IMG/VR virus record: IMGVR_UViG_3300045988_141143
Length of the DNA stretch: 64,000 nt
From: a virus
Direction: 5' to 3' (one strand)
Shown here: in pieces, positions 13,880 through 63,419 of the stretch
How the letters are laid out: each line of letters opens with the position of its first letter
How positions within the stretch are numbered: the stretch's first letter is position 1
Made by a program: the position numbers and the translations under genes
Notes under the pieces: model-generated
Seen by the model: the letters and a program-made list of their open reading frames with translations, nothing else
The model's database searches: none
Told to the model about the DNA's origin: nothing

Positions 13880-14128
13880 CTAAGACATTTTCTTCTCTAC
13901 GATAGCTGTCACATCAGACACAAGCTGTAAGTCTTTTGCCTCTTCTGGCGAAATCTTGATATGGAACATGGTTTCGGTCTGAAGAACGAGGTCGAGAAAG
14001 TCAATAGACTCAAGAGCAAGATCATCACGCAGGTTAGCGCTGTCGGTCACTTCTGCTGTCGATGCCCAAGGTGTGCGCAGGCCTTCAACGATATTGAACA
14101 CCCGCTGACGTATATCTTCTTTGTTCAT
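13880..14128 (-). CDS. Acyl carrier protein
   Basis: 82 aa, acidic. 'DDLALESIDFLDLV' matches the phosphopantetheine-attachment region (DSL to ESI). Start overlaps the KAS stop (ATGA). Confidence 0.6.
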   Translation of the reverse strand: MNKEDIRQRVFNIVEGLRTPWASTAEVTDSANLRDDLALESIDFLDLVLQTETMFHIKISPEEAKDLQLVSDVTAIVEKKMS

Positions 14129-15339
14129 GATGGTTGATATTTAGAGATGATGAATGATGAGTTGGTGCCTCCGAAGCCAAAGGCATTGCAGAGGATATGG
14201 TGTGCTGAGTACTCGCGTGACTGCATGACGAGATTGAGTTTGGGAAAAGCATTCTCGGCTGTGGTAGCCGCACCGAAGACAGTGTCTGTGTTGAGCATCA
14301 TGGATGCTTGAACGGCCTGCGATACACCAGCCATCCAGCACTCGTGCCCCGTCATGCCCTTGGTGGCTACGATATAAGGGCTCTCGGGGAATACCTTTCC
14401 GATGGCTTCTGCCTCTGCAGCATCGCCCAGCTCTGTACCTGTGGCATGGGCAAGGAGTACATCTATCATTCCTGCATCGAGTCCTGCCGATTCTATGGCC
14501 TTAATCATTGCCACTTCTTCCTGATAAGCATCCGGGGTACAGATGTTGGTGCCGTTGGTGGAGAAGCCGCAGCCGGAAAGTTCTGCCACGGGCGAGACTT
14601 CATAATCCTCGAAACGCAAGCTGTCGGAAGGCTCAAGAATGACACAGGCTGCACCACCCGAAGGAGCAAGACCATTGCGGCCTTTGCCGAAGGGCTGCAC
14701 CTTGTCGGGCGAGAAAACGCCCATGGCATCAAACGACAGCATGGAGAAGGGACCTGTCTCCTGTGCGCCAACGACAATCACCATGTCGGTTTGGCGCGTA
14801 TCAAGAAGCATCTTGGCAAGACCGATGGCATGACCTCCTCCGGCACAAGCCCCGCTGACGGTAAGCGAAAGTCCTTTCAGTCCGTAGATAGAGGCGAGAC
14901 TCATGCTGACGGTGGAATTGAGTGTACGGAACACTGCGCCTGCCCCTAAACGTCGGGTGTCGCGCTGTGTAATGGCAGTTGTCATTGCCTGATAGTTGTC
15001 TCCAGCCGTAGTGTCGTTGCTGACGATGACCGATACATTGTGAGACTGCAAGAACTCGGGAAGAATATTGGCTTCCATCAGAGCCTCGTTGACGGCAGAT
15101 AAGGAATATAGGGTCGGTTCGGAAAGACATTGCCGTTGAGCCCTGGTGAGTTCGGATAGCTTCCAAGGGTTCGGGTCATTTATCTTTCCGCACAGGTCGG
15201 ACTGATAACCTTTCTCGCTACGTGCGGGGTCGTGGTGAAGACCGCACTCTCCATACGCCAGCTTCTGTGCGACGGAAAAGGTATCGTTGCCAAGACAGGA
15301 AACGATACCTGTGCCTGTGATTAATATTTTTCTATCCAT
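14125..15339 (-). CDS. Beta-ketoacyl-ACP synthase (KAS I/II, FabF/FabB-like)
   Basis: Active-site Cys in 'VSGACAGGGHAIG'. His motifs 'LAHATGTELGD' and 'KGMTGHECWMAG'. C-terminal 'FGFGGTNSSFII'. Confidence 0.75.
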   Translation of the reverse strand: MDRKILITGTGIVSCLGNDTFSVAQKLAYGECGLHHDPARSEKGYQSDLCGKINDPNPWKLSELTRAQRQCLSEPTLYSLSAVNEALMEANILPEFLQSHNVSVIVSNDTTAGDNYQAMTTAITQRDTRRLGAGAVFRTLNSTVSMSLASIYGLKGLSLTVSGACAGGGHAIGLAKMLLDTRQTDMVIVVGAQETGPFSMLSFDAMGVFSPDKVQPFGKGRNGLAPSGGAACVILEPSDSLRFEDYEVSPVAELSGCGFSTNGTNICTPDAYQEEVAMIKAIESAGLDAGMIDVLLAHATGTELGDAAEAEAIGKVFPESPYIVATKGMTGHECWMAGVSQAVQASMMLNTDTVFGAATTAENAFPKLNLVMQSREYSAHHILCNAFGFGGTNSSFIISKYQPS

Positions 15340-30530: not shown

Positions 30531-31439
30531 TTATCGCATGGCTTCCTCAAGAGTTCTAATATAAGGTATGGCTTCGTTGCGCACAATGTCGAGAAAAAGT
30601 TGTGCTGACCGCTTCATCGGCACGTCCTTCATCCAGTGGGCATTGCTCATCAGGTCGTGCTCAAGCCCAGCGATGGGACGGACGGTAAGGGTGGGGTGAC
30701 TCTTCAGATAAAGTTTAGGCATGAAAGTAACACAATGGGTTTCTTCCACGATGGCAAGGTCTTCGTTGGGGTCGCTCACAATACATTTTACATTCAGTTT
30801 CATCAAGTCGTATCTCAGATATTGCTGGAAGGTATTGAACACCCTTTCGCCTACATCGGGCATAATCACGTTGTGCCTTAACAAATCCTCGTATGACACC
30901 TTTTCCAGTCGGGCCAAAGGATGGGTGTCCCGCATCATCGCATAGATACGGAAAGGAATACAGGGTTCTGACTTGATACCCTCATTCTTGTAGGCAGAGT
31001 TCAGAGTGAAGGCGAGGTCAATGGAGTGGCTTCTCAACAGGTGGTTCAAGTTCGCTGCCTTGGCAAACTCGGCGTTGATTCTCACATTCGGGTATCGCTC
31101 CATGAAGATAAGTGCAGCCATCCGAATGTAAGGTGCGATAAAAGAGCCTACACCTATCCTCAGCTCGCCCACAAGGCAGTTGTTGAGCGCATTGATTTGC
31201 TCCTTGCAGTCATCCGTCTGCTTCAGTATCTCCTTGGCGCGAGGCAAAAGCGCCTCGCCGCTCTCGGTGAGCATGATGCTGTGCGAGGTGCGGATAAGCA
31301 GCTTGCACCTCAGTTCATCCTCAAGAGCCTTGATGTGCTGACTGATGGCGGACTGAGTGACACAACAGCGCGTGGCTGCAATGCTGAAAGATAAAGTTTC
31401 AGCGACATATACAAATGAGCGCAAATGACGAAGTTCCAT
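30531..31439 (-). CDS. LysR-family transcriptional regulator
   Basis: N-terminal wHTH 'MELRHLRSFVYVAETLSFSIAATRCCVTQSAISQHIKALEDEL' followed by a substrate-binding-like domain. AT-rich flanks. Confidence 0.75.
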   Translation of the reverse strand: MELRHLRSFVYVAETLSFSIAATRCCVTQSAISQHIKALEDELRCKLLIRTSHSIMLTESGEALLPRAKEILKQTDDCKEQINALNNCLVGELRIGVGSFIAPYIRMAALIFMERYPNVRINAEFAKAANLNHLLRSHSIDLAFTLNSAYKNEGIKSEPCIPFRIYAMMRDTHPLARLEKVSYEDLLRHNVIMPDVGERVFNTFQQYLRYDLMKLNVKCIVSDPNEDLAIVEETHCVTFMPKLYLKSHPTLTVRPIAGLEHDLMSNAHWMKDVPMKRSAQLFLDIVRNEAIPYIRTLEEAMR

Positions 31440-35757: not shown

Positions 35758-36246
35758 TTATTCCAACTGAATAGGAATAAAATCGGACATTGCTTTACAA
35801 GTGGCTGTTATGGTTCTCGACTCCGAACTGTTTGTAGCAGTCGAAGATGTGGCAAGTCGGAAAGTATGAGCAAGCGTATAACAGAGCCAAAACGATTCGT
35901 CTCGCCTACGAAGTACTATATAATAGTCCTTACCCTTCATTAGTTTAGACGCTTCGCATACAAGATTACCACCAGTCAACACATTTACACTCACCTCAAA
36001 GGTATAAACAGTTCCGTTTCCACCTTGCGATGGAGTTTCTTTTGCTGTAATGCTGCTTGCCAATACCGTATGTTCTCCTTCAGACATGGCGATATGCAGC
36101 GCTGGCTCGGAAAAATTGCAGTTGTTTATCTGCATAATCTGAGCGACAAATGGCGGAACAGGGATAGAGGAATGTTCCACATCATGAAAGTAAACGTCGG
36201 TTACGCCATCGAGAAACGTCTCCCTACAATTATCTGGTACAAACAT
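35758..36246 (-). CDS. Hypothetical phage protein (162 aa)
   Basis: Intact ORF upstream of the protease. Confidence 0.35.
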   Translation of the reverse strand: MFVPDNCRETFLDGVTDVYFHDVEHSSIPVPPFVAQIMQINNCNFSEPALHIAMSEGEHTVLASSITAKETPSQGGNGTVYTFEVSVNVLTGGNLVCEASKLMKGKDYYIVLRRRDESFWLCYTLAHTFRLATSSTATNSSESRTITATCKAMSDFIPIQLE

Positions 36247-36318
36247 ATATATCGAATATTATAATTAAACTTTTAACTTATTTTACTTTTCTTATTAACA
36301 CATTTTTAAAGGCGGTAT

Positions 36319-37050
36319 TTATAGCCATTGTATCTCGTCAATGTGCATACAGCTTTCTTTTGCGTCGCCATACTGCATATCGAAACACGAAAACGACTTA
36401 TAATTGGCGTGTTCGGTACTCAACCAGCGGTTGACGATGCGGCGAAGATTATCCTTTTCTTCGGTTGTCGGTTCTATGCCATATCTCATTAAGTATCGCT
36501 CCAGCGCAGCAGCCCTGGAACGAGCTATCAGACGGCCTTTTGACGTGCAATAATCGAAAGTAGAAAGCGACCACTCCACAATGCTTCGCTTGAAGTCATT
36601 GTTTATGGATGTAAGCAGGCGACGCACACCATGGGTATCAATCGTCCAGGAAGGAGTAACCGACTTGACTACATCTACCATCTCCACCTCATTCGGAAGT
36701 TTAATGCAAAGATAATCTTCATTGTTGGTTTTAGCGTAATCAAGTTTACCGTTCAAGTATTGAACTTCGCCATAAGAAAGATATTGGTGAACATCTCTCT
36801 TGATGACAATACTTCCACCTAAAGGATGTCTGCCTTGCATCATGTTTCGCCACTGCTGTTGCGAAAAACAAGTCATATTGATTTGCTTACAATTAGCCAC
36901 AGCCGGGGTCAGTGAATTGCGCAGAATGAAATGCTCCGGCATATAACTGTTAAAGACCAGAGGATCACACTCGGACAATACGTGGTTAGGGTCTCGATTC
37001 CTGATAAACTGGCACCGACTCAACGGAAGCCGAAGATAGATATTTGGCAT
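36319..37050 (-). CDS. Hypothetical phage protein (243 aa)
   Basis: Intact ORF. Confidence 0.4.
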   Translation of the reverse strand: MPNIYLRLPLSRCQFIRNRDPNHVLSECDPLVFNSYMPEHFILRNSLTPAVANCKQINMTCFSQQQWRNMMQGRHPLGGSIVIKRDVHQYLSYGEVQYLNGKLDYAKTNNEDYLCIKLPNEVEMVDVVKSVTPSWTIDTHGVRRLLTSINNDFKRSIVEWSLSTFDYCTSKGRLIARSRAAALERYLMRYGIEPTTEEKDNLRRIVNRWLSTEHANYKSFSCFDMQYGDAKESCMHIDEIQWL

Positions 37051-37099
37051 CTTAAAAAATGTTTACTTTTTACATTCAGATTGGCAAGAGGGTCTTTTT

Positions 37100-38077
37100 T
37101 TACCTTTTTACTTTTTTACCTTTACTTCTATGGTAGTACAACAGGATAATATCTGTTACTCTAAAGCAATAGTTGGCTGGATCTTTATCCGCTGTGACAG
37201 TACATCCCGCCTCTTTCATCACCTTGTCGAGCCTTTCTGTCTGACTGGGCGATAAAACTTTGACGAGCGATAAAGCATCTATATACGTTCCTCCACTTTC
37301 CGTATGCTTGATAAATTCCTTATCAAAATGGGTTTCATTGTAAAAAAACAGGTTAATGGCTTCTACCATCTGCTCTGCAGTATAAACTGGCAACATGGGT
37401 GTCAGTTTACGAAGCTTCTTGCTGTAGGTAGTCAAACGTTTGCTGAGGTAATCGTCGATACTGTCAGAATATTCAAAATACAGCTGTGCTTTAGGAGTGT
37501 TGTCATCCTTACCAATAACAGACTGATAAAAGCCACGAAGTTGCTGTATCATTTTGATAACACCGTCGAACTGATGGAACTCAGTAGTATTGCCGAAGAC
37601 TGCATACATATTCGACCTGACATCCTTCACGACGCATTCCAGCATGTCGGAAAGAAACGCTACCTTATCAAGGTTGAGTGACAATGTATCTACCTTCTCT
37701 TGCATACCATCCTGAGAATAATCTACAAAATATCTCAGTAGAGTACCGAAGGAGAAAAAGTCGAAGGTAACGTTGGAACGAACATTCGCCAACACAACGG
37801 AGGAATACATCGTATAAGCCAGCTCTAAATCGCGCTTCTGTATCTGCTTCACCAGATTTTGAATTTCCGATGAACCTTGCTTCAACCGACTTGCCACCTT
37901 CGCGAGGTTGTTGCGTCTCGTCATCAACTCATTAAAGTCAGGATCACGAAAGAGTAGGTCAAGCGACTCGGTATATTTCTCCAAAGGTACGTCTTTGAAG
38001 TTAATGGAATAAATGGTAGGCTGCGCATAGATGGCATCTATGCGCTTTGCCTCTTGTTGCTTTTTGCTTTTGCCCAT
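37100..38077 (-). CDS. Hypothetical phage protein (325 aa)
   Basis: Intact ORF. Confidence 0.4.
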   Translation of the reverse strand: MGKSKKQQEAKRIDAIYAQPTIYSINFKDVPLEKYTESLDLLFRDPDFNELMTRRNNLAKVASRLKQGSSEIQNLVKQIQKRDLELAYTMYSSVVLANVRSNVTFDFFSFGTLLRYFVDYSQDGMQEKVDTLSLNLDKVAFLSDMLECVVKDVRSNMYAVFGNTTEFHQFDGVIKMIQQLRGFYQSVIGKDDNTPKAQLYFEYSDSIDDYLSKRLTTYSKKLRKLTPMLPVYTAEQMVEAINLFFYNETHFDKEFIKHTESGGTYIDALSLVKVLSPSQTERLDKVMKEAGCTVTADKDPANYCFRVTDIILLYYHRSKGKKVKR

Positions 38078-38156: not shown

Positions 38157-38546
38157 TTATCTCTCGTCACCATCGCCGGCAATGACATTTCGCTGCTTGC
38201 GAGAGGCAAGTTTAGCCAGGTTTTCCTCAGCCACTTCTTCGAGCGTAACACCCATCACTTTTGCCAGTCCTGCTGTCTGCCAAAGAATGTCGCCGATTTT
38301 AGAAAGCATCAGATGGCGTTCCTCGTCACTGACGTTCCACACCTGTGTATGCAGGATCTTGCCTTCCTCGTCGCGCTGGGTAGTGGTGATATGCAGCTTG
38401 CCTTTGCGCATGTGCTTACCGGCTTTGCTTGCAAACTCACCAACCTCGCCAACGAGATTGGCAAGCATATAGAAGAGGTTGTCACTCTCAGGAAGACAAG
38501 TACTCATTGCCTTGTCCTGATATTCGTTTAATGTTAAATTTGCCAT
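38157..38546 (-). CDS. MazG-like nucleoside-triphosphate pyrophosphohydrolase
   Basis: 'LTLNEYQDKAMSTCLP...LANLVGEVGEFASKAGKHMR' (EEVGE-type MazG motif). Start taken at the internal ATG at 38546. Confidence 0.55.
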   Translation of the reverse strand: MANLTLNEYQDKAMSTCLPESDNLFYMLANLVGEVGEFASKAGKHMRKGKLHITTTQRDEEGKILHTQVWNVSDEERHLMLSKIGDILWQTAGLAKVMGVTLEEVAEENLAKLASRKQRNVIAGDGDER

Positions 38547-38571
38547 GATATATATATGTTTATATTGATGA

Positions 38572-39468
38572 TTATATGTCAAACTCATCACAATACTGGC
38601 GCATACGCTCGATGATGATGTTGCGTATCTTCTCACCAATAATCTTGGCATTGGGATGCGGTGTGCCCGTCTTGCCATGATAGCGAAGGTCGAGAATATG
38701 GCTCCAGTCGGAAAGCGTATAGGTATATGCCACAACGGTATAGGTATCGAGAGGCAGAACACCTCGTGCGTCCTGCGGCTTCAAGCCGGACTTCAGAAGT
38801 CGGTTGTAGCCCCACTCGCATACTCGGCATACAAGGCCATAGACCATGCGCTGCCAACGACTGCCTTCTACGTGCCAATGCGGACGTGCTATCTGTACGC
38901 CTCCCTTCTTCTCTAAATAGCAATAGCGTGTGCTCTGTTCGGCGATGCTGTTGGGCGACGTGCGGTTGAGCTCACGCGAGGTACTTATCTGCGTGGTTAC
39001 TACCAGCGTCATGCGGATAATAGAGAATGCCTCCTCGCACTCGTACTTCAGTGCCTTCTCGATAAACTCGTCTTCGCTGACACCATACTGACTAAGCGTA
39101 TTCATTATGTCCTCGTGCTCAAGCGCAAACTGAGTATTGGTACTGAACCATACCTTATGATTCTTGGTGGCATAGTTGATGTAAGGCGATGCCTCCAGAT
39201 ATGCCCAGATGTGGTTAGGAAGACCCCTTTCGTTGGGCATAAAGAAATAGACTGTGCCGTGGCGAAACATCGAGCGATGTCCGCTTTCCCAGAAGCCTTT
39301 GCAGCGTTCCTCGTCACGCTTCTGGATGAAAGTTTTCTCTTCCTCTTCGGTCATTCCTTCTTCGGGCTGCTTGCCCTTTGCCTTGTAGCATATTCTGCCC
39401 ACTCTTGCTATATGTTGTGCAAGAGTAGTCTGCTGCCACCATTCTACTTGTGGTTCGATGAATTTCAT
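38572..39468 (-). CDS. thyX: FAD-dependent thymidylate synthase ThyX-like
   Basis: 'TSRELNRTSPNSIAEQSTRY' resembles the ThyX RHR...S.RY signature. C-terminal 'ARGVLPLDTYT...LDLRYH' block. Confidence 0.5.
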   Translation of the reverse strand: MKFIEPQVEWWQQTTLAQHIARVGRICYKAKGKQPEEGMTEEEEKTFIQKRDEERCKGFWESGHRSMFRHGTVYFFMPNERGLPNHIWAYLEASPYINYATKNHKVWFSTNTQFALEHEDIMNTLSQYGVSEDEFIEKALKYECEEAFSIIRMTLVVTTQISTSRELNRTSPNSIAEQSTRYCYLEKKGGVQIARPHWHVEGSRWQRMVYGLVCRVCEWGYNRLLKSGLKPQDARGVLPLDTYTVVAYTYTLSDWSHILDLRYHGKTGTPHPNAKIIGEKIRNIIIERMRQYCDEFDI

Positions 39469-39509
39469 TATGGATGAATTTTAATTTGTTATTAAAAGAT
39501 AGTGCATTC

Positions 39510-40016
39510 TCATATTTTCCGAAGTTTACTCAATACTCGTCGCTGCACCTTGTCACACAGACTTTCGAGCGAGCCGTTATTGAAGATTACTGCATCGTAG
39601 AAGAACAAGGACAGAAGATTGCGCTGTTGGTCGCGGTCTAAGCGTTCCTGCGACACCCCTCGGCGCAGTCGAGTTGCTTCCCATGCCGTCACACAAATCT
39701 TGAATAGCTCGATGTCGGGGAATTTCTCGCACAAGGCTTTCAGTCCGTCCTCGTCAATGACGTAAATAGCCTTGTCCGTCACCTGGTCGATGGTGGTCCA
39801 ATACTCATAGCCGCCATACTGGGTGTATGCCAACATCTTGTCGTGCGGTACGTCGCACTTCTCTACAAAATAATGCTGCCAACCGTCAATTTCGCCTTCA
39901 CGCTTCGGACGAGTGGTATAAGAACATATCACTTTATAGCCGCCCATGTCGGACAGCATCTGAGCCACAGTGTCCTTTCCTGCACCACTCGGACCAGTAA
40001 TTGTTATCAGTTTCAT
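39510..40016 (-). CDS. Guanylate-kinase-like dNMP kinase
   Basis: P-loop 'ITGPSGAGKDT'. 'TTRPKREGEIDGWQHYFV' matches the Gmk 'TTRPPRPGEVDGVDYHFV' block. Confidence 0.6.
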   Translation of the reverse strand: MKLITITGPSGAGKDTVAQMLSDMGGYKVICSYTTRPKREGEIDGWQHYFVEKCDVPHDKMLAYTQYGGYEYWTTIDQVTDKAIYVIDEDGLKALCEKFPDIELFKICVTAWEATRLRRGVSQERLDRDQQRNLLSLFFYDAVIFNNGSLESLCDKVQRRVLSKLRKI

Positions 40017-40194
40017 ATATTTTTTGTTTGAATTTTAACATTTGAGCAATCAGTAAACAATCAGTAAACAATCAGTAGACATGAAGTAAATACGCATAGG
40101 CTTCACTCTTTGCGAAAATCGGGGCTTTTTTTGCCGTTTTTCGAGTTTTTGATTTAACACTTGTGAAAAAGTGTTTTTATGTGATTACGACCCT

Positions 40195-41280
40195 TTAGCC
40201 ATAGATTTCCTGCATATCCTCCCTCGAAAGTGTTACCTTGGCTCTTTTGCAAAACATGAAAAAAGTATTTGCTCTTACTCTTTCGTATTTTCCGAATGAC
40301 TTCCAAGGAGCCACAAAGTCTGATTCACGGTGTCCGTGGTTGGCATCAAAGGGACGGAAACGAGAAACTCGCTTCCACATATCATAGCCTTCATTCGGAT
40401 CGATACTGTATAAAGACATTCCGCATTTAACCCAGTCATCATAGTTTTCCATAATGTCAACAGCATTCTGCTCTACCTTACGTACAAGGACACGCGCTTT
40501 GCGCAAGATGATGTCGGGTGTATCATTTTCCCAATCACCAGTATAACCCGACCTCTGACCTGACGACGTATTTTCGTAATGCGTAGCAACTTTAGTTACA
40601 GGAATTAGCGATGGCAACACAGCCATATCTTCCAGTCCCTTATACGGCACCACATTTTCATTGATATATATATGTTCGGGATCGTCCCAGGAGGCGAAGC
40701 GCACACGACCGATGTTGCTGCAAGCCTTGTCGAGCATGATGCCGATAGCGGCATATTCTTTGAGCAGAGCTTTGAACTGGTCTTTGTGTCTTTCGGGATA
40801 GGCCAGACGAACCAGACCGAAATAACCAGTACCAGAGCAAGACCGCATCATTAATCCTATCTCAGGACGAAAACGGGCAAGCTTAAATATACTTTCAAAA
40901 TCAGTTATCTGAAGATTGTCCTGCAGATCAATGTCGATGGCGAGCCAGCCCGTGTGCTGTTTCAGGTGGCTCTCTCGTCGGCTCACCATGACACGCTGCC
41001 CTGGATGCGTCAGACTGTCATCTTCATAGAGAGCGAACAAGCCGCTAAGAGTGGCACCAGGTAACATCTTCTTGGTATTGATGTACTCAGGCATTTTCTT
41101 TGCCTTGCTGCCAAATTCCTGACGCATAGCACGAAGACGCTGCACATACGGCTTCCATCTATCCGTAAGACAGAACTCGCGGATGGTCATCTGCTGAATG
41201 CACTCACCCGTCTCGCGGTCTACGAAACGGCCATAAGCATCTTGGGCAGACTCATAAATAGAGCAAACTTCGTCAAACAT
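40195..41280 (-). CDS. Prim-Pol (AEP-superfamily) primase-like replication protein with PriCT-like C-terminus
   Basis: AEP motif I 'LAIDIDL', motif II-like 'SCSGTGYFGLV', 'RVRFAS'. C-terminal 'YDDWVKCGMSLYS'. Confidence 0.5.
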   Translation of the reverse strand: MFDEVCSIYESAQDAYGRFVDRETGECIQQMTIREFCLTDRWKPYVQRLRAMRQEFGSKAKKMPEYINTKKMLPGATLSGLFALYEDDSLTHPGQRVMVSRRESHLKQHTGWLAIDIDLQDNLQITDFESIFKLARFRPEIGLMMRSCSGTGYFGLVRLAYPERHKDQFKALLKEYAAIGIMLDKACSNIGRVRFASWDDPEHIYINENVVPYKGLEDMAVLPSLIPVTKVATHYENTSSGQRSGYTGDWENDTPDIILRKARVLVRKVEQNAVDIMENYDDWVKCGMSLYSIDPNEGYDMWKRVSRFRPFDANHGHRESDFVAPWKSFGKYERVRANTFFMFCKRAKVTLSREDMQEIYG

Positions 41281-42199
41281 ATCTTAGTTATTATACTTAA
41301 TACTTTCACTGCAAAATTAAGAAATAAAACCTAAATAACAAAATATCTGGGGTATTTTCTTGTGTATTTAAGATATATTAAAAGAAATTTAATCGAAATA
41401 TCCCAGTTGTTTCACGTAATGATAGGTATTTTTGAGTGATGAGAAGGAGCATAAAATAAAATGAGACCAAAAAGAAGACTCTGGTCTCATTTCTGTATCA
41501 AAAAGTCCCATTTTTCAAAAATGAACCAAAAAGCAAAAGTCCACTCATCCTATTTTTCTCCTTTTTAGTCCCATGATTGTCTCACGATTATCACCCTGTT
41601 GCCCACTTATTTCTTGCTGTTACTTGCTTACTAATTAGCTTTTTATATTATTTTGGTCTCAAAATGATTATTTTTTTTATAAACTAATATGCGCATAAGA
41701 AATAAAATATTTATCTAAAAGATATAAAATACAGCAAAATTGGCTCAAATCCATCTTATACTTTGCTCCATTTCAATCTTGTAAGTAACTTATTGTCTGA
41801 TGTTTACGGCAAAGCCGTTAATGCTACTAACTTCTAAATTGAGGTTAGGGGCTTTTGATTTTAGGAGAATAAAAAAATTACCCAAAATTCTGATATAGTA
41901 TGCTTAGGATTCATGAAAAATGCGACCAAAACCCTGAAATGAGACCAAAAATGCGAATAAAGTCCCAATAAATGAGACTGTTACACCACTACTCTACCCT
42001 GTCACATTCATATTTGCGAAATGCGACCAGATTATTCGGATTCCATATTGACTATCGTTTTATAGCCGTTCACACCTCACAGCGAAAGAGAAAAACACTG
42101 CGTTTCACAACGAAAAAAGACCACCACGTTTCACAACGGAGCGGTCTCATCAGAAAATACTAACTAATAAATAAGATAAAGAAAATAAAATTCGTAAAC
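41281..42199. repeat. 0.9-kb AT-rich non-coding region with iteron-like repeats (candidate replication origin)
   Basis: At least 8 copies of AATG(A/C)GACCA(A)AA in both orientations (41458, 41482 inverted, 41518, 41651 reverse, 41915, 41937, 41969, 42017). 'AAGTCCCA' occurs 3 times. Inverted repeat AAATGAGACCA-N13-TGGTCTCATTT at 41458-41492. Confidence 0.45.
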
Positions 42200-51193: not shown

Positions 51194-52044
51194 ATGTTAA
51201 ACGAACAACTGCAGAAAAAGGTAAAACAGTCGATAAAACTCCTGCAGAGTGTGCAGAAGCGATACGACGGCGAGATAGAGATAGCCTACTCGGGCGGTAA
51301 GGACTCCGACGTGATCCTTCAGCTGGCGAAAGAGGCAGGCATCAAGTATCGGGCCATATACAAGAATACGACCATCGACCCGCCAGGCACGTTGGGGCAC
51401 GTCAGAGAAATGGGAGTGGAGATACTGCGGGCCAAGACATCCTTCTTTCATCTCGTGGCACAGAAAGGATTTCCATCTCGCTTTACTCGTTTCTGTTGTG
51501 AAGAACTGAAGGAATACAAGGTGCTCAACAAAAGTATTATCGGCGTGCGCAAGGCTGAGAGCCGGAAACGAAACGAAAGATACAACGAGCCGACAGAGTG
51601 CCGATACTTCGGAAAGAAGAAAGAGGAAAATCACGTAGAACAGATTTATCCTATTCTGGAATGGACCGATGAGGACGTGCGTGACTTCATCATAGACAGA
51701 AAGTTGAAACTCGCACCCATTTATTACAATTCGGGGGGCAAATCGACGTGTCGAAACGTCTTGGCTGTATGTGCTGTCCTCTTGCCTCAAGGCGCAAGCG
51801 CATTATCGAGTTTCAGAAATATCCCAAGATAGCAAAGGCTTATCTCCGTGCGGGGCAACGATTTATGGAAACGCATCCTGACAGCAAGGCGTGCCAGAGG
51901 TACGACAATGTTTACGAATGGTTCGTTCGCGACGTATTTTACAGCTCCAATGCAGATTGGAGCAAGGTAAGCACAGGGCTGTTCGGTAAGCCGGACTTCA
52001 AGAAATTCTTGGAGGACAAGTTCGGTATTGACTTGACATTATAA
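51194..52044 (+). CDS. PAPS-reductase-family (PP-loop) protein split by a 1-nt frameshift in a G6 tract
   Basis: 'IAYSGGKDSDVIL' PP-loop, 'RFCCEELK', 'IIGVRKAESRKRNE'. Conserved C-terminal 'RLGCMCCPL' continues in frame +2 after GGGGGG at 51733-51738. Reported ORFs 51194..51832 and 51748..52044. Confidence 0.55.
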
Positions 52045-52724: not shown

Positions 52725-53333
52725 ATGAATAACAACATAAAAAGAAAGGACTGGGTAGGCGGCTCGGCTGCTGTATTCAAGACGTTGGGCGCGAGCAACC
52801 ATACGAATGCGGATAGACAGCGTGAGGATTACTATGCCACTGAGCCGAAGGCTACGGAATGGCTGTGCAAGCTGGAGAGGTTTGAGGGCAGGATTCTTGA
52901 GCCTTCGTGTGGCGAGGGCCACATGAGTAGAGTATTGGAGGCAGCAGGGTATGAGGTGGTGAGCCGCGATCTTGTGGATAGAGGGTACGGCGAAGTTGCC
53001 GACTTTCTCTCTATTGACAATATGGAGTGGGATGGCAATATCGTGACTAATCCACCCTACAAATACGCACAGGAATTTGTGGAGAAGGCTCTAAGCATCA
53101 TTCCCGAAGGAAAGAAGGTGGCGATGTTTCTAAAGCTGACTTTCCTCGAAGGCAAGGGTCGACGCGCTCTCTTCCGTTCTACTCCCCCCATTCGTGTTTG
53201 GGTAAGTTCATCACGACTGAAATGCGCCATGAATGGCGACTTCGAGGCTTACGGCAGCAGCGCCGCGGCTTACGCATGGTTCGTGTGGGAGAAAGGATAT
53301 AAAGGCGAGACAACTGTAAAATGGTTTAACTGA
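52725..53333 (+). CDS. Small N6-adenine DNA methyltransferase (phage Dam-like)
   Basis: AdoMet motif 'ILEPSCGEGHM' followed by 'IVTNPPYKYAQEF' (NPPY). Confidence 0.6.
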   Translation: MNNNIKRKDWVGGSAAVFKTLGASNHTNADRQREDYYATEPKATEWLCKLERFEGRILEPSCGEGHMSRVLEAAGYEVVSRDLVDRGYGEVADFLSIDNMEWDGNIVTNPPYKYAQEFVEKALSIIPEGKKVAMFLKLTFLEGKGRRALFRSTPPIRVWVSSSRLKCAMNGDFEAYGSSAAAYAWFVWEKGYKGETTVKWFN

Positions 53334-62103: not shown

Positions 62104-63306
62104 TCAGTTCTCATTCTTCCTCTCCATATTCTCCTTGAACATTTCTCCGAAACCATCCCAATAATGAGCGTCCATCCATTCGGGCGAGGATAAAAACTGC
62201 TCATACATCATTGTCGCAGGTATCGTCCGTAGGTATTTCTCGCAAGCCTTAACGTCTTTGTCCCACAAATCCATCCGCTCCATTTCTATCTGAAAATACG
62301 TCTTGAGGAACATTGCCGCCTCATGTGTCGGTGGCAGGTCGAATTGAAGGAATAAGGCATTGTCGGAGTCGTTTGCCTTGAGGAACTTGCTCACGGCATC
62401 GTCCTTGAGGAAATAGCGGTCAGACACTTCCTCTTCGAGCACGTCTTCCAATCGGGTAAGCAGCTCGAAAGGTTCTGGGAACTGATAGTCGAATGCCACG
62501 TCTCGGCGCATGGAGAGGCAGAACACACGGTCGCGGTTTTGTGGCACACCGTAGTTCTTGGCGTTGAGTCGCGTCCAACGGCTCACATAGCCGAGCGACG
62601 AGAGTTTGTCGAGCCACTTCTGAAAGTCTGGCAAGAACTTCTGGCTTACCAGTGCCGCCACGTTCTCCTGCAAGAGATACTTCGGGCGAAGCACCTCCAC
62701 AGCATCCGCCACACGCCAAAGCAGTGCGCTTCGGGTGTCGCTGCCCTCCTGCAAGCCCATTTGCTTGCCCGCCTGACTGATGTCCTGGCAAGGCGAGGAA
62801 TAGGTGAAGAGGTCTACTTCGCGGCCTTCGAGCGAGCTTTCCACCTCGTGCCAGTCAATCTTGGTGATGTCGCCCAGGGCGCAGTCGGCAAACTGAGGGA
62901 AGACGAGGTTGTGCATCTGACAGGCGTATTTGTCGATGTCGCTCCATCCTATACATGTCCATCGGAAGTCGGGATGCCACTCGCGGAGCACATCGGCTGC
63001 CATAAGCTGCGAGTCGTAGCCGAAGAACGTGGTAAGGAATATCTTCTCCTCGTTCTTGTTGGCTGCGGTGGGCGGCAGGGCGGGTAATGTGTCTTCGAGG
63101 TCGTCGAAGAGCGAGAGTTGCTTTTGCTTACGAGGTTTGGGCGTAGGATAGAAAAGTTGCTCGTAGATGTGGGCCAACACGTCCACCACGATGCTGTTTC
63201 CGGCTTGCTTGTACTGCTGTGAGGCAGATATAGCCATGTCTTCGGGCTTGCCCTTGCCTTTCCAGTCGGGCAGACGTTCGGCTGCTTGAGCATTGCTGCT
63301 CTGCAT
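62104..63306 (-). CDS. C5-cytosine DNA methyltransferase core with non-canonical (circularly permuted) motif order
   Basis: Motif X 'QYKQAGNSIVVDVL' lies near the N-terminus. Then 'GWSDIDKYACQMHNLVFPQ...GDITKI' (II/III), 'SSPCQDIS' (IV), 'LLQENV' (VI), 'QNRDRVF' (VIII) and a TRD-start-like 'LEDVLEEEVSDRYFLKDDAVSKFLK'. Motif I is not clearly recognisable. The ORF table lists 62104..63348 from a GTG. Confidence 0.55.
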   Translation of the reverse strand: MQSSNAQAAERLPDWKGKGKPEDMAISASQQYKQAGNSIVVDVLAHIYEQLFYPTPKPRKQKQLSLFDDLEDTLPALPPTAANKNEEKIFLTTFFGYDSQLMAADVLREWHPDFRWTCIGWSDIDKYACQMHNLVFPQFADCALGDITKIDWHEVESSLEGREVDLFTYSSPCQDISQAGKQMGLQEGSDTRSALLWRVADAVEVLRPKYLLQENVAALVSQKFLPDFQKWLDKLSSLGYVSRWTRLNAKNYGVPQNRDRVFCLSMRRDVAFDYQFPEPFELLTRLEDVLEEEVSDRYFLKDDAVSKFLKANDSDNALFLQFDLPPTHEAAMFLKTYFQIEMERMDLWDKDVKACEKYLRTIPATMMYEQFLSSPEWMDAHYWDGFGEMFKENMERKNEN

Positions 63307-63314
63307 CGTGCCGA

Positions 63315-63419
63315 TTACATTGTCACGAACGCCATCAGACGAAAACACTCCTTGGGTGTGAGCTTGCGGATGGCATAGCTCTTGATGGTGCGGTCGGTGA
63401 AATTGAGTTTTGTAATCAT
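63315..63419 (-). CDS. 34-aa mini-ORF carrying a C5-MTase motif-IX-like peptide, out of frame with the MTase core
   Basis: 'MITKLNFTDRTIKSYAIRKLTPKECFRLMAFVTM*'. 'RKLTPKECFRLM(G)F' is the motif-IX consensus. The core continues in the +1 frame a few nt downstream. Confidence 0.4.
   Translation of the reverse strand: MITKLNFTDRTIKSYAIRKLTPKECFRLMAFVTM

Follow-up and report, generated by a model that had tools for sequence, protein, structure and literature searches.

A phage gene trio of MazG, long-form Thy1 and a guanylate-kinase-fold kinase as a probable thymidylate-supply module

A stretch of viral DNA of 64,000 nt (IMG/VR record IMGVR_UViG_3300045988_141143; the whole stretch is called the window below) carries three adjacent minus-strand genes that encode a MazG-type pyrophosphohydrolase, a long-form Thy1/ThyX-like protein and a kinase of the guanylate kinase (GK) fold. 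The trio is probably a canonical module that supplies deoxythymidine triphosphate (dTTP) and excludes uracil from DNA, and it is most likely of the same kind as the module in crAss-like phages. In the proposed pathway, an NTP pyrophosphatase would take a pyrimidine deoxynucleoside triphosphate (dNTP), most likely dUTP and possibly dCTP, to its monophosphate, a step assigned to the MazG-type enzyme here and to a trimeric dUTPase in the same slot of sister genomes; the long-form Thy1 would methylate dUMP to dTMP; the GK-fold kinase would take dTMP, and possibly other deoxynucleoside monophosphates (dNMPs), to the diphosphate; and the host's nucleoside diphosphate (NDP) kinase would complete dTTP. 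This reading is built on family memberships, conserved residues, gene order and the alternation of two enzymes in one slot, from which each substrate and product named here is deduced. As a dTTP-supply module, the trio would be ordinary phage biology and would leave the understanding of phage nucleotide metabolism unchanged. The three genes and the upstream neighbour of the kinase gene are as follows.

38157..38546, minus strand: gene for a MazG-type pyrophosphohydrolase of 129 amino acids (aa), with its ATG at 38546 (Pfam, PHROG)
38572..39468, minus strand: long-form Thy1/ThyX-like gene, 298 aa, a putative flavin-dependent thymidylate synthase (FDTS) (Pfam, PHROG, AlphaFold2 (AF2) model)
39510..40016, minus strand: GK-fold kinase gene, 168 aa, a putative dTMP or dNMP kinase (Pfam, PHROG)
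40195..41280, minus strand: primase-related gene with BT4734-like_N and PriCT_2 domains (Pfam, phrog_15962)

An earlier note, made from the letters of the window, had described adjacent MazG, ThyX-like and guanylate-kinase-like genes at 38157-40016, and this description is borne out: all three open reading frames (ORFs) are present on the minus strand, the outer coordinates match, and the Pfam and PHROG matches that identify each gene are strong and far above chance level. In particular, Thy1 matches PF02511 (E-value 5.9e-20; 72.3 bits against a cut-off of 24.8) and phrog_85 (2e-19); the kinase matches PF00625, Guanylate_kin (3.1e-12; 47 bits against 25.2), and phrog_1815 (2.5e-29); and MazG matches PF03819 (1.1e-7; 32.5 bits against 22) and phrog_229 (2.6e-24). 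The genes are separated by 25 and 41 nt, and the same gene order recurs in more than 80 related phage contigs. A 201-aa ORF with a GTG start was considered as the true MazG gene and rejected; its overlap with Thy1 amounts to about 190 nt, and the gene called in relatives is the 129-aa form. The minimal claim of the note, that the phage would have an autonomous supply of dTMP, holds on the functions predicted for these genes.

The pyrophosphatase step is best seen from the slot that follows Thy1. The gene order is constant in the window's own lineage (89 loci): a tape-measure gene and a primase-like gene come first, then the kinase and Thy1, then the variable slot and finally three conserved unknown genes. 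In the slot, 50 loci have a full-length MazG, 16 have a trimeric dUTPase, 4 have a MazG that is truncated, and 19 have neither enzyme. The slot dUTPase has 148 aa and is of the trimeric type (PF00692, 37.4 bits); no trimeric dUTPase is present in the window. Among the 19 loci with neither enzyme, 17 are almost gapless at this position and 2 have another insert, and these empty slots include relatives whose Thy1 is 95-96% identical to that of the window. When 145 non-identical loci are compared, the gene directly downstream of Thy1 is a MazG in 62, a dUTPase in 13 and neither in 70, and no locus has both enzymes anywhere in its fetched flanks (0/145). Moreover, the alternation appears again in a second deep lineage, with MazG in loci such as L131 and dUTPase in L152; a second sampling reached other deep lineages, several of which have the order primase-like gene, Thy1 and MazG without a kinase, and one of which has the order primase-like gene, Thy1 and dUTPase.

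Among solved structures, the MazG protein itself is placed by fold comparison alone, and its fold does not fix its substrate. A sequence search against the PDB returned nothing significant; the AF2 model (pLDDT of 79) has its nearest solved folds in iMazG, DCTPP1/RS21-C6, YpjD and DR2231, all with weak Foldseek E-values of 1.5e-3 or above. The PDB entry titles describe DCTPP1 as a dCTPase and DR2231 as bound to dUMPNPP. The closest structural matches (DCTPP1/RS21-C6, the integron iMazG and the DR2231 dUTPase) share the single-domain all-alpha fold of the window protein, which differs from them by its low identity (16-23%, with Foldseek E-values of about 1e-3) and by a Lys in place of the ExxD Glu. 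Here, the first metal motif is intact (ExxE; E34-V-G-E37), and the ExxD motif reads K83-I-G-D86, an E83K change. Among 37 distinct full-length sequences taken from related loci, 35 have Glu at this position, as do at least 105 of 120 close cluster representatives, none of which has a Lys (0/120). Because the slot alternates, the enzyme is absent from many loci, the ExxD Glu is changed and the fold neighbours include a dUTPase and a dCTPase, these observations taken together argue for MazG as a dispensable functional analogue of dUTPase, which would feed dUMP to Thy1 and exclude uracil from DNA, and not as an obligatory purger of a canonical dNTP. The alternation between MazG and dUTPase thus offers a testable function for this widespread family of phage MazG proteins, about which little is understood: that of an analogue of dUTPase or dCTPase.

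For the kinase, the phosphate-binding side of the acceptor site is kept and the base-reading side is changed. The best sequence match in the PDB is the guanylate kinase of Staphylococcus aureus (2j41; 1.2e-12), and the score against the guanylate kinase equivalog model lies below its cut-off (TIGR03263; 54.9 versus 160.45 bits). The protein has a P-loop (GPSGAGKD) and a second motif (SYTTRPKREGE); in yeast numbering, the P-loop and S34, R38, R41, E44 and Y78, which we take to be the GMP-phosphate ligands of yeast guanylate kinase, are retained in 66 of 66 family members. Four other positions carry the changes E69A, Y50H, G79W and D98V, each invariant in the same 66 members, and D100 is kept. 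Positions 69, 50, 79 and 98, Glu69 among them, are presumably those that read the guanine base. The S. aureus 2j41 sequence agrees with the yeast and Escherichia coli reference sequences used for this comparison. The kinase gene adjoins Thy1 in 87 of 89 close loci, and on crAss-like contigs the same position beside Thy1 is taken by a DNMK kinase (PF21448), a family unrelated to the GK fold. The recruitment of two unrelated kinase families to the side of the same synthase suggests that they share one role, most simply the phosphorylation of dTMP to dTDP, in which case a GK-fold kinase with an altered base pocket would stand in for the usual phage dNMP kinase.

The three genes could also be independent neighbours that share no pathway, with a MazG that acts on (p)ppGpp or purine dNTPs, a true guanylate kinase and a Thy1 that makes dTMP. 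The MazG slot is variable, as is common for accessory genes, and the best matches of the kinase are all guanylate kinases; further, (p)ppGpp has been proposed as a substrate of phage MazG proteins, for which a preference for dGTP and dCTP is also reported. This arrangement is nevertheless unlikely: two or more deep lineages have either MazG or dUTPase directly after Thy1 and never both, the unrelated GK-fold and DNMK kinases both adjoin Thy1 in different phage groups, and the Glu that we take to read guanine is an Ala in every one of the 66 family members, whose window representative scores far under the guanylate kinase cut-off.

Thy1 is the central enzyme of the proposed dTTP-supply module, and it combines a conserved nucleotide site with an altered flavin motif. 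An indexed search finds 4129 relatives, and an exhaustive search finds 2682 clusters at 50% identity. By sequence, the match to solved ThyX structures is weak (best E-value of 1e-4); the AF2 model is of high confidence (pLDDT of 93.2, pTM of 0.90), and its listed top matches in a Foldseek search of the PDB are all either ThyX/FDTS, from Thermotoga maritima, or the ThyX-like methylase PolB (E-values of about 2e-8, target-normalised template-modelling (TM) scores of about 0.54). The window protein and 133 cluster representatives (n = 134) were aligned residue by residue with T. maritima ThyX, where the reference sequence was confirmed to be identical to PDB 1kq4. The window protein has all of H53, R74, R78, E86, S88, R90, Y91, R147 and R174 (T. 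maritima numbering), and these residues vary little or not at all among the 134 sequences. H53 and E86 are counted here among the functional residues of ThyX as well. The roles of the arginines, S88 and Y91 in dUMP binding and catalysis are described for ThyX (PMC6514825), as are the hydrogen bonds that the canonical RHR motif makes to the phosphates and ribityl of flavin adenine dinucleotide (FAD) (PMC6514825).

The ThyX signature R-H-R ... E-x-S-x-R-Y reads R169-T-S ... E177-Q-S-T-R-Y182 in the window protein, which therefore retains the first Arg of the motif and the whole of E-x-S-x-R-Y, and has Thr in place of H79 and Ser in place of R80. The consensus at the RHR position across the clade is R-[V/T/K]-S. 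Further changes relative to T. maritima ThyX are Q75 to Glu, E58 to Arg and S30 to Cys, together with about 75 inserted aa that follow the H53 segment. The insertion, the R-x-S motif with an Arg at the E58 position and the location on phage-sized contigs place the window protein in the long-form Thy1 clade. Compared with canonical ThyX/FDTS (T. maritima TM0449, PDB 1o26), the fold and the dUMP-binding and catalytic residues are shared; the canonical enzyme differs in its intact RHR motif and its lack of the insertion, and the two are about 24% identical. Within the alignment, the two flavin-site changes covary perfectly: E58 occurs with H-R in nine of nine sequences, and R58 occurs with x-S in about 120. 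Since the loss of H79 and R80 is matched so closely by E58R, the alignment suggests that a phosphate-binding arginine was relocated to position 58 and that the cofactor site was not lost. A literature search for a described R-x-S variant of ThyX found nothing, and no mention of an RHR loss with a covarying E58R was found in the searchable literature. This crAssphage-type "Thy1" is carried by thousands of gut phage contigs, and its R-x-S/E58R variant is a clean target for ThyX enzymology.

An R-x-S Thy1 might no longer bind FAD at all, and could then be a non-catalytic dUMP-binding protein or an enzyme with another cofactor, such as flavin mononucleotide (FMN). Other positions that we take to contact the flavin also differ, with R165 variable and H178 replaced by Thr or Lys. 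H79 and R80, which are part of the FAD-contacting RHR motif (PMC6514825), are gone. We consider this distinctly improbable, as the nucleotide-site and catalytic residues are all under strong purifying selection in thousands of sequences, which argues that the enzyme is active, the covarying E58R suggests that the positive charge is preserved, and the Arg that opens the motif and contacts the isoalloxazine ring does not vary. Even less weight is given to a remodelled flavin site with a differing chemistry, for example with a different form of flavin or a non-dTMP product, in R-x-S proteins that include gp28 of crAssphage; we regard it as very improbable. If it were true, the GK-fold or DNMK kinases would serve that product, and phages among the most abundant in the human gut would contain a modified pyrimidine.

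Several points weigh against the trio being a dTTP-supply module. Thy1 falls below the thyX equivalog cut-off (TIGR02170; 47.4 versus 87.9 bits), its RHR motif, the flavin-phosphate motif that defines the family, lacks two residues, and no assayed Thy1 of the R-x-S clade was found in the searched literature. To our knowledge, there is no characterised GK-fold enzyme that acts on dTMP. The E83K change may mean that the MazG step is weakened in this particular genome. Moreover, neither MazG nor dUTPase directly follows Thy1 in those 70 of the 145 loci, and in 52 neither is found in all of the fetched flanks; with so many loci lacking both enzymes, the pyrophosphatase step would often be left to the host or encoded elsewhere. 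The locus counts include many closely related genomes, so that they are not counts of independent events, and the alternation in the slot could be that of a mere hot spot for accessory genes.

The earlier note had seen in the trio the logic of phages that replace a canonical base, where Thy1 would make a C5-modified pyrimidine nucleotide, a dedicated kinase would phosphorylate it and MazG would purge the competing canonical dNTP. Some features speak for such a module: Thy1 is non-canonical in its altered RHR motif, its insertion of about 75 aa and its score below the equivalog cut-off; the base pocket of the kinase is remodelled; and DCTPP1-type relatives of MazG have been crystallised with 5-methyl-dCMP and 5-methyl-dCTP (dm5CTP). 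There is also a precedent for pairing an enzyme of the thymidylate synthase superfamily with a cognate dNMP kinase in the 5-hydroxy-dCMP synthases, but these belong to the ThyA family (PMC13326640). Base replacement is nonetheless very improbable. An intact dNTPase that removes the canonical competitor, as would be expected of precursor systems for base replacement (those of the T4 hmC, SPO1 hmU and S-2L Z-genome types), is not a constant part of the module: 39 of the 89 close loci have lost MazG, have a truncated copy or have a dUTPase instead. MazG is missing from near-identical relatives, it is interchangeable with dUTPase, and in the window it carries E83K. The uracil-contacting R174 and the other catalytic residues of Thy1 are unchanged, the loss of H79 and R80 is offset by E58R, and the kinase is missing beside Thy1 in other lineages. 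Further, the phage encodes a C5-cytosine DNA methylase; if phage DNA is what this enzyme methylates, cytosine would be present there as the ordinary base. No glycosyltransferase, 5-hydroxymethyldeoxyuridine (5-hmdU) DNA kinase, aGPT-Pplase or dedicated polymerase was found in the sparse Pfam and PHROG annotation of the window and 10 kb to its right, and no PurZ-like or other base-replacement gene in the sparse Pfam annotation available; most of the submitted window proteins have no family match.

The base-replacing trio of the earlier note is thus not upheld, as MazG is not obligatory and carries E83K, and Thy1 shares its clade with the crAssphage protein, which lies with a dNMP kinase and a dUTPase in a putative ordinary dTTP pathway. 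Its statement that the ThyX family includes pyrimidine hydroxymethylases in some phages found no support in the searched literature, where phage dUMP hydroxymethylase and 5-hydroxy-dCMP synthase are assigned to the classical thymidylate synthases, the ThyA family (PMC8989533, PMC13326640). On the clustering with canonical thymidylate synthases, which the note had raised, the window protein does not group with the canonical short ThyX; it keeps the active-site residues and falls in the clade of the crAssphage "Thy1".

The nearest described counterpart of the dTTP-supply module is that of crAss-like phages. Among GenBank phages, the matches listed for Thy1 amount to 74 records, nearly all of them Crassvirales; the exceptions are a few large phages of Bacteroides and some gut phage records without classification. 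Genes conserved in crAss-like phages include Thy1, dUTPase and a dNMP kinase, and Thy1 and dUTPase are considered ancestral (PMC7886860). In crAssphage (Carjivirus communis), gp26-gp28 and gp34 are a dNMP kinase, a zinc-finger protein, Thy1 (annotated as "flavin-dependent thymidylate synthase") and a nearby dUTPase, such that Thy1 lies two genes downstream of the DNMK-type dNMP kinase and about 2.5 kb from the dUTPase. The crAssphage gp28 belongs to the same long-form clade as the window protein (about 37% identity, an R-V-S motif and an Arg at the E58 position), which makes the window Thy1 a member of a clade that is already annotated; the Thy1 of the crAss-like phage cr11_1 is of the R-V-S type and falls in the same clade. 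In these phages, one or two genes separate Thy1 from the position of a DNMK-type dNMP kinase, and a dUTPase is found within a few kb. Both phages have a nucleotide kinase just upstream of Thy1 and a dUTP-hydrolysing function close by, which is a predicted function in the window, and both are gut phages of Bacteroidota with genomes of about 90-100 kb. They differ in that the kinase here has the GK fold and not the DNMK (PF21448) fold, the pyrophosphatase is of the MazG type and not a trimeric Dut, and the module follows a primase-related gene and lies between tape-measure and probable head genes. The window phage is not obviously a member of the Crassvirales, given the lack of DNA-level similarity and a tape-measure gene of 1983 aa.

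Cultured crAss-like phages carry a related form of the enzyme. The Thy1 proteins of crAss001 (gp54), DAC15 (gp68) and crAssBcn9 (gp59) are also long-form, with the insertion and a Glu at the Q75 position as in the window; they differ in retaining RHR and E58, and they are 26-30% identical to the window protein. None of these three cultured isolates has the R-x-S form (0/3).

The same three-step logic, from a dNTP pyrophosphatase to a C5-modifying synthase to a dNMP kinase, is found in the T4-type pathway, where gp56 is a dCTPase/dUTPase, gp42 or td acts as the synthase and gp1 is the dNMP kinase. The T4 enzymes come from other families, namely a Dut-like gp56, ThyA-family synthases and a DNMK kinase. 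They also differ in the role of the first step: the T4 pyrophosphatase is needed for cytosine exclusion, whereas the MazG of window-type loci is dispensable and can be swapped with a plain dUTPase.

The window phage is a gut phage whose host is probably Prevotella, because most of the closest Thy1 relatives in the species-genome collection come from contigs that were binned as Prevotella or Prevotellaceae; bins with the labels Bacilli, Clostridia and further gut taxa contain more distant relatives. The collection has 39 Thy1 matches, mostly in bins of metagenome-assembled genomes (MAGs), and none of their contigs is longer than 130 kb, with many of 90-107 kb; it is for this phage-like size that the Thy1 clade looks phage-restricted. 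An IMG/VR contig of 91 kb (UViG_3300045988_134987) is near-identical to the window, with a Thy1 that is 99% identical by tblastn. When the 6-kb region was searched at the DNA level against GenBank phages, no close cultured relative appeared in that collection, and the single match was of 142 nt, to the Thy1 gene of cr11_1. The isolate assembly of Prevotella sp. MGM1 has a contig (Contig204; 90,283 bp) with a Thy1 of about 40% identity directly after a primase-like gene; this contig may be a carried or plasmid-like phage and could provide an experimental handle.

The surroundings of the module are also conserved. A primase-like gene lies directly upstream of Thy1, or of the kinase and Thy1, in many lineages. 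In the window, the module is flanked upstream by the tape-measure gene of 1983 aa, which in relatives is PF10145, and downstream by the three conserved unknown genes and then by probable head genes. The three genes at 35758-38077 (162, 243 and 325 aa) have no family match and always come after the Thy1 module, and those of 243 and 162 aa persist even where Thy1 is only about 40% identical.

The primase-like gene, the kinase, Thy1 and MazG are probably co-transcribed, with the primase-like gene first. This arrangement rests on gene spacing, since scans of the region for sigma-70 promoters and for terminators gave numbers of sites not above shuffled expectation. Two elements upstream of the primase-like gene are as follows.

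41312..41319, minus strand: promoter-like motif of the Bacteroidota -7 type, TAATTTTG (pattern match)
41458..41493, minus strand: terminator-like hairpin with a 15-bp stem and a T-run (consensus scan)

The TAATTTTG motif ends about 31 nt upstream of the ATG of the primase-like gene, with TTTG elements further upstream; there are 29 matches of this type on the minus strand of the window, which makes it weak evidence. The hairpin at 41458-41493 lies at the boundary of two units, that of the tape-measure gene and that of the primase-like gene, the kinase, Thy1 and MazG. The consensus scan places terminator-like hairpins after the tape-measure gene and none inside the kinase-Thy1-MazG cluster.

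Two sets of repeats lie in this region. Between the tape-measure gene and the primase-like gene lies an AT-rich stretch of about 920 nt. At 41457-42031 it contains five or more copies of AAATG(A/C)GACCAAA, which occur in both orientations; two of them pair to build the hairpin at 41458-41493, and the copies may form an origin or iteron set beside the primase-related gene. At 40047-40079, three tandem 11-nt units, TTTACTGATTG, lie on the minus strand 30-60 nt upstream of the start codon of the kinase gene, and these could be a candidate protein-binding site or simple slippage.

Several other genes of the window have recognisable families. A PAPS-reductase-like protein (51194-51832; PF01507, phrog_424), a weak methyltransferase-like ORF (52725-53333) and the C5-cytosine DNA methylase (62104-63348; PF00145, 157 bits) possibly take part in DNA modification or anti-restriction, unrelated to the trio. 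A full-length LysR-family regulator (30531-31439; HTH_1 and LysR_substrate) lies among probable virion and lysis genes and is kept in a related contig of 103 kb. At 13880-15339, a beta-ketoacyl synthase (PF00109 and PF02801) stands beside an acyl carrier protein (PF00550), and the start of the synthase resembles a pair of an acyl carrier protein and a ketoacyl-synthase-like gene (L096, 3451-4934) on the distant 90-kb contig of Prevotella sp. MGM1.

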